The notes under the pieces are model-generated. The model was not told the origin of the DNA and did not search any database. It saw nothing but the letters and a program-made list of their open reading frames with translations. The position numbers and the translations under genes are program-made. A stretch of 64,000 nt of DNA from a virus (taxonomy: Duplodnaviria > Caudoviricetes), in IMG/VR virus record IMGVR_UViG_3300035520_001860, positions 32,001-96,000 of that record, one strand, 5' to 3'. Below are positions 10,785 through 44,395 of this stretch, piece after piece. Numbering within the stretch: position 1 is the first letter of the stretch; each line of letters starts with the position of its first letter.

Positions 10785-12767
10785 ATGGGAGCACCTAGTA
10801 TTCCAAAGGAAAACATTACAGGTTTAGTTGTAAAGGGATGGATAGTAGATAGGTATGACACAAAAGGTAAATGGGTATGCAAGTGTGAAAAGTGTGGAAA
10901 AGAAGAAATATTCAGAGCATATCATTTAAAAGAAGCACGAGTTAAAATTTGTAATCATTCAAATAATAAGGCTACACATACATTTAAAGATGATTTGACA
11001 GGAAGAACCTTTGGTGAACTAAAAGTAATAGGATTTGATATAGTGAATGGTGTGTGGAAGTGTAAATGTTCATGTGGAAAAGAAGTATACCATACTACAT
11101 ATCAATTAGTAACAAGGGGTGTGAAAACATGTGGACACAGCAGTGGTGTACTAAAAGACCTTAGAGGAAAGAAATTTGGAGAATTAATACCAATTGAATA
11201 CCTAGGTGATAGAACCTGGAAATGTGAGTGTTCTTGTGGAAAAATTACAAACGTTAGAACAACTGACCTTGTGAGTGGAAACACACAATCATGTGGTCAT
11301 CTTAAAACCGGAGCACCTGTAATAGACTTAACAAATCAGCAATTTGGAAACTGGACAGCTTTAAAATATGTTGGAAACAGCTATTGGCAATGTAAGTGTA
11401 CCTGTGGTAATATAGAAAATGTTCATTCATATACATTAAGAAATGGAACATCAACAAGGTGTTCATCACCATTGCATAGAGTAACAGATATAAAAGGAAG
11501 ACAATTTGGTGAGCTACATGTTGAAGAATATACAGGCAATGGATTCTGGAAATGTAAGTGTTCCTGTGGTAAAACAAAAAACATACTTGGAGTCAACTTA
11601 AGAAATGGAAGTACTAGATCATGTGGATGTATGACAGACAAATTATTAAGACAAACATTATTTAGTAGATACAATGAGATATGTCCATCAAGAGTAGATA
11701 ATGCAAGAAGCACACAACAGATAGAAATTTTACATACAAAAGAATTGTTTAATGCACTCCTAGTAGAATACACAATAAGTTATGGAAAACCAGATGCATA
11801 TGCATTAGCAGATATATTAGGCGTTAGTAGATATACAATAGTCAACATGGCTAATAAGTATGATTTACTAGATAAAATAAAAATATACTATAATAGTAGT
11901 AAAGGAGAAAACCAGGTAGCAAACTTTGTAAGAAACATATACAACGGAGAAGTAATACAAAACACTAAGAAAATACTAGATAATGGCAAGGAACTAGATA
12001 TATACATCCCAGATAAACACATCGCAATAGAATTTAATGGAACCTACTGGCATTCCACAATCTACAAAGATAAGTATTATCATCAACAGAAAACATTAGA
12101 TTGTCATAGGCAAGGAATACGATTAATCCATATATTTGAATATGAATGGAATGATGCAGACACACAGCAGAAAATAAAGAATCACTTAGAATTACTATTA
12201 AGTAACAATATACAAACCATTGGAGCACGAAATACAGAAGTAAAAGAAATAGATAAGCAAACAGCAAAAGAGTTTATAGATAAGTACCATCTTCAGAAGT
12301 ATAGTGAGTCATCGGTTAATATAGGATGCTTTTACAACAACGAACTGATTGGAGCATTAACATTAGGTCATCCAAGATTCAACAGTGAGTATCAGTATGA
12401 AATCATAAGATTTTGTTGGAAAGATAGAGTAAAAGTAACAGGTGGCCTAGAGAAATTATTTTCATACTTTATAAAAAATTATCATCCAAAGTCAATAATG
12501 GCATACTCAGATATATCAAAGTTTACTGGCAATTGTTATACAAAGATAGATTTCAAACCAATAAAACAAAATACAATCACAGAACCAAACTACGTATGGG
12601 TTGATATAGAAAGCAACCAAGTACTATCAAGATACCAAACACAAAAGAAGAAGCTAATAGCTAATAATTTAGGTACAGAAGAACAAACAGAAGATGAGAT
12701 AATGGATAATAATGGATTTTTCAAGATATACAACTCAGGTAATATTAAGATGCAATGGGAATACTAA
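10785..12767 (+). CDS. Freestanding homing-endonuclease-like protein, copy 1: five Cys/His Zn-finger repeats, HTH, Vsr/DUF559-like PD-(D/E)xK nuclease, Mom-like GNAT domain
   Basis: Repeats DLTG..FG.....W.C.CSCG...L..G...SCGH; ELDIYIPDKHIAIEFNGTYWH nuclease motif; C-terminal KYHLQ..IGCFYNNELIG..YEIIRFC..SIMAYSD. Confidence 0.8.
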   Translation: MGAPSIPKENITGLVVKGWIVDRYDTKGKWVCKCEKCGKEEIFRAYHLKEARVKICNHSNNKATHTFKDDLTGRTFGELKVIGFDIVNGVWKCKCSCGKEVYHTTYQLVTRGVKTCGHSSGVLKDLRGKKFGELIPIEYLGDRTWKCECSCGKITNVRTTDLVSGNTQSCGHLKTGAPVIDLTNQQFGNWTALKYVGNSYWQCKCTCGNIENVHSYTLRNGTSTRCSSPLHRVTDIKGRQFGELHVEEYTGNGFWKCKCSCGKTKNILGVNLRNGSTRSCGCMTDKLLRQTLFSRYNEICPSRVDNARSTQQIEILHTKELFNALLVEYTISYGKPDAYALADILGVSRYTIVNMANKYDLLDKIKIYYNSSKGENQVANFVRNIYNGEVIQNTKKILDNGKELDIYIPDKHIAIEFNGTYWHSTIYKDKYYHQQKTLDCHRQGIRLIHIFEYEWNDADTQQKIKNHLELLLSNNIQTIGARNTEVKEIDKQTAKEFIDKYHLQKYSESSVNIGCFYNNELIGALTLGHPRFNSEYQYEIIRFCWKDRVKVTGGLEKLFSYFIKNYHPKSIMAYSDISKFTGNCYTKIDFKPIKQNTITEPNYVWVDIESNQVLSRYQTQKKKLIANNLGTEEQTEDEIMDNNGFFKIYNSGNIKMQWEY

Positions 12768-12789
12768 AGGAAAGACAGGTGGATAAGAG

Positions 12790-42480: not shown

Positions 42481-42502
42481 ACACACTAGAAAGGACACAT
42501 AA

Positions 42503-44395
42503 ATGACACAATCAACTTTTATAGATATAACTGGACAAACTTTCAATGAGCTTACTGCAATAAGATGTATAGACTCAAAAACTAGACTTTGGGAGTGGCA
42601 GTGCTCCTGCGGAAAGATATGCACAGCACGAAAGAATGATGTAACATCAGGTAAAAAGAAATCCTGTGGTCATTTGTCAAACCGTGGCGGAGCCAATATA
42701 AACATAGGAGATAAATTTGGAGAGTGGACTGTCATTGAAAAACTTGAGGATAGGCACTACTTATGTAGATGCTCTTGTGGAACAGAAAGAAGTGTACACT
42801 CATATGACTTAAGAAAAGGTAAAACCAAATCCTGTGGGCACTTAACAAAAGGTACATCTACCAATGGTAGGAAAGACTTAACAGGTCAGAAAATAGGAGA
42901 GTGGTCCATTGGAGAATACATAGGGGATGGTTTATACAAGTGTACATGTTCATGTGGAACAATCAAGAATCTCAGAGGCACATACTTAAGAACTGGTCAG
43001 TCTAAATCCTGTGGTCATATAACAAATAAGTTTCAAGACTTAACAGGAAAGCAATTTGGCGAGTGGACAGCTATAGAGTACATGGGTGAATACATGTGGA
43101 AATGTCAATGTTCCTGTGGAATCATTAAGAGTGTAGCCTCATATGAATTAACACACGGTAACTCAACAAACTGTGGACACAAACGAACAGCAGATATACT
43201 AGGAAAAAGATTTACAAGGCTTGTAACAAAAAGGTATATAGGAGATAACCTGTGGGAGTGCCAGTGTGATTGCGGTAACGTTGTAAATGTATTAACAAGT
43301 AACTTAGTACATGGTTCAACAAAATCCTGTGGATGCTTAAAAGATGTTAAAAAGCAGCAGTTGGCATCAGACATTAAGAAAACAATTTATGACTACACAT
43401 TATCAAATGGTCAATCACCATTTGCAGAGGATGTAGCAACAGCACTTGATATTACAACAGCAACAGTTCACAAATATGTAAATGAAAATAATTTACAAGA
43501 TTGCTTAAACAAACATTTTGGGAGTAAAGCAGAACGAGACATATATAACATATGTAAGAAGTCAGAATATAGTGTAATATCACGAGACAAATCAATACTA
43601 AACGGAAAAGAACTCGACATCTACCTCCCAGACAAGAAACTCGCAATCGAGTTTAATGGGAACTATTGGCATTGTGACGATAAACTTTCCAAAGATTATC
43701 ACCAACACAAAACCATCGAATGTGCAAAGAAAAAGATTAGACTAATACACATATTTGAATACGAATGGGGAGATAAAGAGGTACAGTCCAAACTAATAAA
43801 ATTAATTCAAACAATAGTCAATGACACTAGAAAGTCAATAGGAGCACGAGAAACCGAAATCAAAGAAATCACACAAGCAGAGTCAGACACCTTCCTAGAC
43901 AAGTATCACTTACAAGGAAAGGCTCAAGCAACAATTCATCTAGGATGCTTCTATAGCAACGAACTAATAGGTGTGATGACCCTAGGTTCTCCACGATTTA
44001 ACAACAACTATCAGTATGAAATAGTAAGACTTTGTTGGCGCGACGACATCAAAGTCTCAGGCGGTGCTGAAAAACTCTTTCACTACTTCGTAACAAAATA
44101 CAAACCACAATCAATCATAACCTACACAGACATTTCCAAATTTACTGGCAATGTTTATACACGCCTTGGGTTCAAACTAATACAACCAGACTTCATCACA
44201 GAGCCGAACTATAAATGGGCAAGTGCAGCAAATGATTTGGTACTATCCCGTTACGAAACCCAAAAGCACAAACTCATAAAAATGGGACTCGGCACAGAAG
44301 ACCAAACCGAAACTGAAATAATGAGAAGCAATAACTTCTTAAGAGTATATGATTGTGGAAACCTACGATTAGAGTGGAAAAGCACAGACACATAA
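42503..44395 (+). CDS. Homing-endonuclease-like protein, copy 4: five Zn-finger repeats, HTH, PD-(D/E)xK nuclease, Mom-like GNAT domain
   Basis: Same architecture; ELDIYLPDKKLAIEFNGNYWH. Confidence 0.8.
   Translation: MTQSTFIDITGQTFNELTAIRCIDSKTRLWEWQCSCGKICTARKNDVTSGKKKSCGHLSNRGGANINIGDKFGEWTVIEKLEDRHYLCRCSCGTERSVHSYDLRKGKTKSCGHLTKGTSTNGRKDLTGQKIGEWSIGEYIGDGLYKCTCSCGTIKNLRGTYLRTGQSKSCGHITNKFQDLTGKQFGEWTAIEYMGEYMWKCQCSCGIIKSVASYELTHGNSTNCGHKRTADILGKRFTRLVTKRYIGDNLWECQCDCGNVVNVLTSNLVHGSTKSCGCLKDVKKQQLASDIKKTIYDYTLSNGQSPFAEDVATALDITTATVHKYVNENNLQDCLNKHFGSKAERDIYNICKKSEYSVISRDKSILNGKELDIYLPDKKLAIEFNGNYWHCDDKLSKDYHQHKTIECAKKKIRLIHIFEYEWGDKEVQSKLIKLIQTIVNDTRKSIGARETEIKEITQAESDTFLDKYHLQGKAQATIHLGCFYSNELIGVMTLGSPRFNNNYQYEIVRLCWRDDIKVSGGAEKLFHYFVTKYKPQSIITYTDISKFTGNVYTRLGFKLIQPDFITEPNYKWASAANDLVLSRYETQKHKLIKMGLGTEDQTETEIMRSNNFLRVYDCGNLRLEWKSTDT

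Follow-up and report, generated by a model that had tools for sequence, protein, structure and literature searches.

The subject of this study is a set of four paralogous genes, here called A to D, in a 64,000-nucleotide (nt) stretch of a Caudoviricetes genome (positions 32,001 to 96,000 of IMG/VR record IMGVR_UViG_3300035520_001860; hereafter the window). Each gene encodes an N-terminal array of zinc repeats followed by a Vsr-like nuclease and a Mom-like GNAT domain. The window comes from a 133.6-kb viral record whose completeness is estimated at 59%; every gene in it is co-oriented, and its GC content is about 32%. We conclude that A to D are very probably free-standing homing endonuclease genes of the Hef type, with a Vsr-like 'EDxHD' nuclease, set in intergenic spacers beside conserved replication genes of a jumbo phage. 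The genes are as follows.

10785-12767, plus strand: gene A, 660 amino acids (aa); five zinc repeats, helix-turn-helix (HTH) linker, Vsr-like nuclease, Mom-like GNAT domain
17113-18867, plus strand: gene B, 584 aa; three zinc repeats, HTH linker, Vsr-like nuclease, Mom-like GNAT domain
29782-31374, plus strand: gene C, 530 aa; four zinc repeats followed directly by the nuclease, with no HTH linker, and Mom-like GNAT domain
42503-44395, plus strand: gene D, 630 aa; five zinc repeats, HTH linker, nuclease, Mom-like GNAT domain

The common core and its family

The original prediction, made from the sequence alone, had described four open reading frames (ORFs) with 5, 3, 4 and 5 repeats and a common C-terminal half, all of which was confirmed by an ORF check and by a hidden Markov model (HMM) built from the 17 repeats of A to D. 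Its count of four related genes in the window stands, and a fifth paralog outside the window (E) and a sixth nuclease gene have to be added to it. The shared core of nuclease and GNAT domain is 48-56% identical among the four proteins (E 1e-101 to 1e-110), and the GC content is 0.37 in gene D and 0.31-0.32 in A to C. The parts of the core, and the linker that precedes it, are placed as follows.

17800-17937, plus strand: HTH-like helical linker of B (aa ~230-275; helices predicted in the AlphaFold2 model)
17971-18282, plus strand: Vsr-like 'EDxHD'-type nuclease of B (aa ~287-390)
~11895-12206, plus strand: nuclease of A, by alignment to B
~30445-30756, plus strand: nuclease of C, by alignment to B
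~43514-43825, plus strand: nuclease of D, by alignment to B
18298-18837, plus strand: Mom-like GNAT domain of B (aa ~396-575)
~12222-12764, plus strand: GNAT domain of A
~30772-31311, plus strand: GNAT domain of C
~43841-44380, plus strand: GNAT domain of D

The linker of B gave a weak Pfam match to HTH_20 (E 0.016) and, in a separate profile search, a weak match to sigma-28 region 4 (E 0.53), and by alignment its equivalents are present in A and D and absent from C. The nuclease is more firmly placed. A profile of 34 homologs matches the catalytic domain of I-Bth0305I (3r3p; E 7.9e-6), with D321, N334, H339 and H349 of B aligned to D196, N208, H213 and D222; the last of these, the final Asp of the motif, is an invariant His in this clade and also His in the Hef-like proteins. 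VIA-align superimposes the nuclease on the Vsr/DUF559-like structure 3hrl with Z 11.5 over 89 residues (root-mean-square deviation [rmsd] 2.4). The motif ELDIYIPxK..AIEFNG.YWH...YHQxK is conserved in A to D, the catalytic residues are invariant in the 34 homologs, and phage Hef proteins have been placed in the 'EDxHD' family by Taylor et al. 2011 (PMC3239194).

In the AlphaFold2 model of B (predicted local distance difference test score [pLDDT] 86.6), the C-terminal domain has a GNAT fold, with Z 11-14 to many GNATs. Its best Foldseek match is phage Mu Mom (8bv8; E 9.6e-6, 14% identity), and VIA-align gives Z 13.2, rmsd 4.3 and 17% identity over 169 residues, the longest alignment among the GNATs listed. 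Profile-profile comparison with the Mom family by hhalign gave E 2.2e-5 at 76% probability, and phrog_1384 matches the domain at E 3e-8. Against the single Mu Mom sequence, hhalign and HMMER aligned only the first ~50 residues of the core. The Pfam Mom model (PF25680) scores 19.8-25.4 bits on A to D, below its curated cut-off of 27.1 bits, although some homologs carry precomputed PF25680 matches. Because of these profile, Foldseek, VIA-align and hhalign matches, we consider that the original prediction was right to call a Vsr/PD-(D/E)xK nuclease of the phage homing endonuclease type and a C-terminal GNAT domain nearest to Mom.

Mom uses Gly-tRNA and needs S124, R111, D149, R151 and a helical insertion (PMC13219725), and R111 (R101 in older numbering) is Mom-specific and essential (PMC7261163; PMC13219725). 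In the profile-profile alignment, H418, E455, R458 and W461 of B map onto Mom H58, E108, R111 and W113; all are invariant or conserved, H418 and R458 being invariant in the 34 homologs. The catalytic S124, at the start of helix 3, is replaced by a conserved Glu472 in the motif GGxEKLF, and T-even and Campylobacter Hef-like proteins have Ser there. Residues 529-555 are helical in the model of B. The alignment to 8bv8 extends to Mom residue 238, past the Mom helical insertion, and a Mom-type insertion may be present.

Paralog E (G000:C1:16303-17361, about 14.6 kb before the window start) encodes 352 aa in an open frame and has one zinc repeat. Its nuclease is dead (ELDIY to EIFAY, EFNG.YWH to NFVPNVDN, YHQ to YNV), and all of its GNAT motifs are intact. 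Since E keeps the GNAT motifs without the nuclease residues, the GNAT domain would have a selectable function of its own, and E may be a domesticated derivative.

The family is well populated. PHROG 3339 ('homing endonuclease') and PHROG 559 cover most of each of the A to D proteins (E 1e-71 to 1e-89), and tblastn of the core finds matches in 484 phage records, many of them annotated as Hef-like homing endonucleases. The same HTH, nuclease and Mom-like core is found in the T-even Hef-like gene flanked by nrdA and nrdB, where Hef classically resides (PMC2988022). The GNAT domain is a constant part of the Hef core. No copy of the zinc repeat was found in the Hef-like proteins of T-even phage N2 and Campylobacter phage F365. 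A megablast search of gene A against 50,697 phage records returned no match, and metagenomes hold more than 2,000 near-full-length relatives. Hef itself is said to have been first described in 2005. Among the best 122 of the more than 2,000 relatives, each protein has between 3 and 10 repeats, and their number accounts for its length (r 0.96, ~49 aa per repeat).

Insertion sites

The four sites were compared with those of a syntenic relative, G001 (268 kb), whose gene order matches the window from 223 to 60268. At site B, the gene lies between a DUF1653 gene and a SNF2-type helicase gene, and G001 is empty there, with a 31-bp gap. Gene B opens (17113-17121) with ATGGCAGTA, the same bases as the helicase start (ATGGCAGTC at 18836; ATGGCAGTA in G001), and the two starts share ATGGCAGT. 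The helicase start and its ribosome-binding site sit in the last 32 nt of gene B (18836-18867), the 3' end of which supplies a new helicase start. The window shares this 32-nt overlap with the P0007 contigs (L012, L013) but not with the P0009 contig (L014). Orthologs of B, 54-60% identical, occupy the same DUF1653/helicase junction in other contigs.

Upstream of site C are the topoisomerase II large-subunit gene and its terminator. The site is empty in G001, with a 187-bp gap; the neighbours of gene C are the topoisomerase gene itself (27650-29659) and a 337-aa gene without a family match (31329-32342). Gene D begins 20 nt after a DnaB-like helicase gene, is missing from G001 (180-bp gap) and is also absent from the relative L010. 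Site A, directly after an FtsK/SpoIIIE-like gene, is filled in both phages. The G001 gene (G001:C1:85226-86935) is a three-repeat member of the same family from a different lineage, 42% identical and unrelated in its variable residues, which points to independent invasion of the site or to its rapid turnover.

In line with the selfish system that the original prediction had proposed, the genes behave as selfish insertions: sites B, C and D, though not A, are empty in G001 with their flanks intact. Presence and absence at sites B to D, the swap of lineages at A and the same-site orthologs of B together make the pattern expected of free-standing homing endonuclease genes.

One further trace lies upstream of gene D.

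42271-42342, plus strand: patch of synonymous recoding with high GC and CpG content, within the 3' part of the DnaB-like gene and 160-230 bp upstream of gene D

Within it, the 60 nt at 42271-42330, which are 170-230 bp upstream of D, contain 8 CpG (window mean 0.52) and form the strongest CpG/GC patch in the 64 kb. The peptide is identical to that of G001, while 14 of the 15 codons differ synonymously, including Arg and Ser codon-family switches, and the GC content is 0.60 against 0.36 (z = 5.0). The patch would fit a candidate immune target site or a co-conversion tract of D. Other CpG- or GC-rich 60-nt patches in core genes lie at 10377-10436, 19107-19166 and 7610-7669, two of them within 250-410 bp of genes A and B; none of the three is a clear outlier against G001.

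Two other places in the window differ from G001. The sixth nuclease gene (50530-52002, 490 aa) encodes the same Vsr-like nuclease N-terminally and DUF4379 treble-clef zinc fingers after it, and lacks a GNAT domain. It sits between a ParB-HNH gene (48949-50517) and a 161-aa ORF (51999-52484) and is absent from that position in G001. The 161-aa ORF repeats the HNH-bearing 3' end of the ParB-HNH gene and is 58% identical to the G001 copy. A 1248-aa ORF without a Pfam family (32364-36110) lies where the window is richest in AT (GC 0.29). G001 lacks a counterpart of it at the syntenic position, which makes it another insertion or deletion difference between the two phages.

The zinc repeat

The repeat is a Cys4-His/Cys unit of about 52 aa, and the HMM places its copies as follows.

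10806-11630, plus strand: array of A, five units (aa 8-58, 68-118, 123-172, 179-227, 232-282)
17242-17727, plus strand: array of B, three units (aa 45-95, 97-151, 155-205)
29791-30441, plus strand: array of C, four units (aa 4-55, 59-109, 113-165, 170-220)
42512-43336, plus strand: array of D, five units (aa 5-57, 65-113, 123-172, 175-226, 228-278)

The first copy is degenerate in A, C and D. Among 620 repeats of the wider family, C27 is conserved at 96% and C29, C31 and C50 at 99% each, and position 52 is His in 69% and Cys in 30%. The two knuckles, CxCxC (positions 27-31) and CxH/C (positions 50-52), flank strand 3 and a short helix in the models, and each repeat of the B model consists of three strands and a one-turn helix. 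That helix, which follows strand 3, is just 5 residues long and is not a recognition helix of the classical kind.

The four residues (positions 38-41) that precede the conserved Leu, and that the original prediction had singled out, are indeed among the most variable of the 620 repeats (entropy 2.9-3.8 bits). They are not unique in this, as the family-wide hypervariable positions also include 20, 22-24, 33-36, 43, 44 and 46, which are equally variable. In seven B-lineage proteins (B and six of its closest relatives; same-site placement checked for two, P0007 and P0009), positions 22-24, 35, 39-41, 44 and 46 have an entropy of 0.4-1.0 bit, as compared to 2.9-3.7 bits family-wide, and positions 2-4, 7-10, 15 and 43 drift freely. 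This pattern lends modest support to the view that the stretch before the Leu may help to set specificity; it comes from one lineage and is silent on a per-module code.

Repeats within one protein are 22-57% identical, and most match best to a repeat of another paralog; to judge from these comparisons, the repeats within each protein diverged long ago. In their last repeats, C and D are exactly identical over 29 nt (30356-30384 and 43251-43279), in genes that otherwise show about 68% identity. These 29 nt fall within the conserved WECQCDCGN stretch and speak only weakly for gene conversion. The terminal repeats of A, C and D end in CGC and not CGH, and the last module of these arrays seems to be of a distinct type.

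At E<=1e-3 the repeat profile retrieves 96,166 cluster representatives, of which 29,869 remain at E<=1e-10; a single protein can hold as many as 13 units. The repeat is also fused to HTH_3 and to helicases, and in cultured phages it is found under genes annotated as HNH endonuclease or regulator. On this distribution it is a very common phage module, with a predicted role in DNA binding.

The nearest named relative of the repeat is CapR, a homology that is weakly supported. Pfam has no model of the repeat, and among the 17 individual repeats its sole usable match was a weak one to CapR (PF21817), for one repeat at E 0.011; CapR is also the nearest named cluster for the array by language-model/atlas features (score 0.94). 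In CapR, the cysteines of the zinc finger, which form two Cys knuckles, are needed for DNA binding in gel-shift assays (PMC8096241), and the repeat fits the CapR layout of two knuckles ~18-26 residues apart and nested between beta strands (pattern from PMC8096241). A search of 48,161 PDB chains with a single-repeat model (pLDDT 86.8) returned generic small beta-barrels only (Tudor, KOW, SH3-like and the Hpy99I N-terminal domain), at Z ~5, too weak to name a fold. An AP2/integrase-like fold was unsupported in this search.

Proposed mechanism, alternatives and known systems

As homing endonucleases, the A to D proteins would act in three steps, in which their activity, their targets and the part played by each repeat are predicted. 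First, the array of 3-5 CapR-like zinc modules (three-stranded, with CxCxC and CxH/C knuckles) would bind an extended DNA site, with the HTH linker assisting in A, B and D; the target would lie within the neighbouring conserved gene, or next to it, in related phages without the endonuclease gene. The Vsr-like nuclease would then cut this target during co-infection. Finally, recombinational repair from the endonuclease-bearing genome would copy the gene and its flanks into the cut genome. We infer the second and third steps because of family membership and the pattern of presence and absence.

Some observations weigh against this account. The Mom-specific residues are kept, and the GNAT domain is retained by the nuclease-dead E, which poorly fits a purely accessory role in cutting. 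The arrays at site A carry unrelated variable residues in two phages, so insertion site and array are not matched one-to-one. Beside A, B and C, no recoded or GC-shifted patch is significant against G001 (z <= 2.9), and only that of D is clear. The tie between the repeat and CapR is weak as well (Pfam E 0.011 for 1 of 17 repeats; language-model similarity 0.94). Within the homing endonuclease reading, the GNAT domain may on balance support cleavage as a clamp that engages DNA or flips bases; a more tentative proposal is that it truly transfers acyl or aminoacyl groups to DNA.

The main alternative, and one put forward by the original prediction, is a single-chain 'cut and modify' enzyme of the restriction-modification kind, in which the GNAT domain acylates or aminoacylates adenines at array-read sites in the phage's own DNA and the nuclease attacks unmodified host or competitor DNA. 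Such activity is the published prediction for the Mom-nuclease fusions of jumbo phages (Iyer et al. 2021; PMC7824862), and it would draw on the conserved equivalents of Mom H58, E108, R111 and W113, on the 8bv8 alignment that continues through the insertion region, and on the intact GNAT domain of nuclease-dead E. The S124 position bears on both sides, with a conserved Glu in A to D against Ser in the Hef-like proteins of T-even and Campylobacter phages. We nevertheless regard this alternative as unlikely. Hef is described as a homing endonuclease and not as a defence enzyme (PMC2988022), the Pfam Mom scores are under the curated cut-off, five array-tied self-protecting modifiers would be redundant for general protection, and the recoded patch beside D points to immunity that is based on sequence rather than on modification.

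Less probable still is that the genes are domesticated and immobile, encoding DNA-binding proteins that serve the phage as site-specific regulators, exclusion factors or anti-satellite nucleases, as PLE CapR or ICP1 Odn do. CapR provides a precedent for this module (PMC8096241), and the B lineage is stably tied to one helicase gene across contigs though the endonuclease is only 54-60% identical. Paralog E, whose nuclease has lost D, E, N, H and H and whose open frame, single repeat and GNAT motifs persist, could be such a protein; A to D, however, retain every nuclease catalytic residue. The absence of three of the four genes from the closest relative, with flanks intact, is the pattern of mobile genes, and the deviant GC content of D and its adjacent recoded tract suggest recent arrival. 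The most elaborate proposal, that the 52-aa modules form a true modular DNA code (positions 22-24, 35, 38-41, 44 and 46 per sub-site; 3-13 modules, in the manner of TALE or zinc-finger proteins) and that the Mom-like domain marks its own target adenine against self-cutting, would also have a small chance of being correct.

The locus is a clean natural experiment, with four active-looking paralogs whose arrays differ, a nuclease-dead fifth, and in G001 a close relative that supplies uncut, endonuclease-free alleles of three sites. Two questions thereby become testable: the role of the Mom-like GNAT domain in Hef-type enzymes, and modular reading by an abundant CapR-like module (~30,000 clusters, no Pfam model). 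That selfish endonucleases of large phages shuffle DNA-binding modules is already established biology. The novelty initially claimed for the system was overstated, as Hef-type enzymes, Mom-nuclease fusions (PMC7824862) and modular zinc arrays (PMC10448857) had been published and PHROGs 3339 and 559 match the proteins; each component, and the idea of a modular array, is already in print, and the family is represented in PHROGs.

Engineered zinc-finger nucleases and TALENs, like A to D, join tandem DNA-reading modules to a nuclease, such reading being predicted in A to D, whereas the fold of the repeat is not the C2H2 beta-beta-alpha and repeats within a protein are 22-57% identical. Tandem two-knuckle Cys zinc modules at the DNA-binding end are also found in CapR and in the T5orf172 homing endonucleases of ICP1 (Netter 2021; Barth 2023). 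The ICP1 enzymes differ in having a T5orf172/GIY-YIG-like nuclease and knuckles of the form CxxC...CxC, as compared to CxCxC...CxH/C. In those enzymes, Barth et al. 2023 described repeated, modular and shuffled arrays of CapR, DUF723 and DUF4397 zinc fingers, and proposed that module exchange diversifies targets (PMC10448857). Iyer et al. 2021 reported that Mom domains of jumbo phages are usually fused to nucleases of the restriction endonuclease (REase) fold (PMC7824862). These fusions have the same domain pair as A to D in several copies per genome (for example, five in PA5oct); they were read as restriction-modification-like defence, and zinc-repeat arrays are not described there.

At the level of single domains, Mu Mom (8BV8), a Gly-tRNA-dependent N6 modifier of adenine, shares the GNAT fold and the H58, E108, R111 and W113 equivalents with A to D. 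The A to D domain is set apart by its 14-17% identity, the Glu in place of S124, a Gly-Gly before helix 3, fusion to a nuclease and Pfam scores below cut-off. I-Bth0305I (3R3P), the 'EDxHD' prototype, has a homologous nuclease with the catalytic Asp, Asn and His aligned; it differs in being intron-encoded, in its NUMOD/HTH binding regions, in the absence of a GNAT domain (PMC3239194) and at D222, which is the invariant His of A to D. Hef of T-even phage U5 and the Hef-like genes of T4-like, Campylobacter, Acinetobacter and other phages have, like A to D, the HTH, the Vsr-like nuclease and the Mom-like GNAT core, and they too are free-standing between conserved genes of nucleotide or DNA metabolism. 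The Hef-like proteins of N2 and F365 differ from A to D in having other zinc ribbons and motifs N-terminally and Ser, not Glu, at the S124 equivalent; they are 30-36% identical to the A to D core and carry the same motifs.

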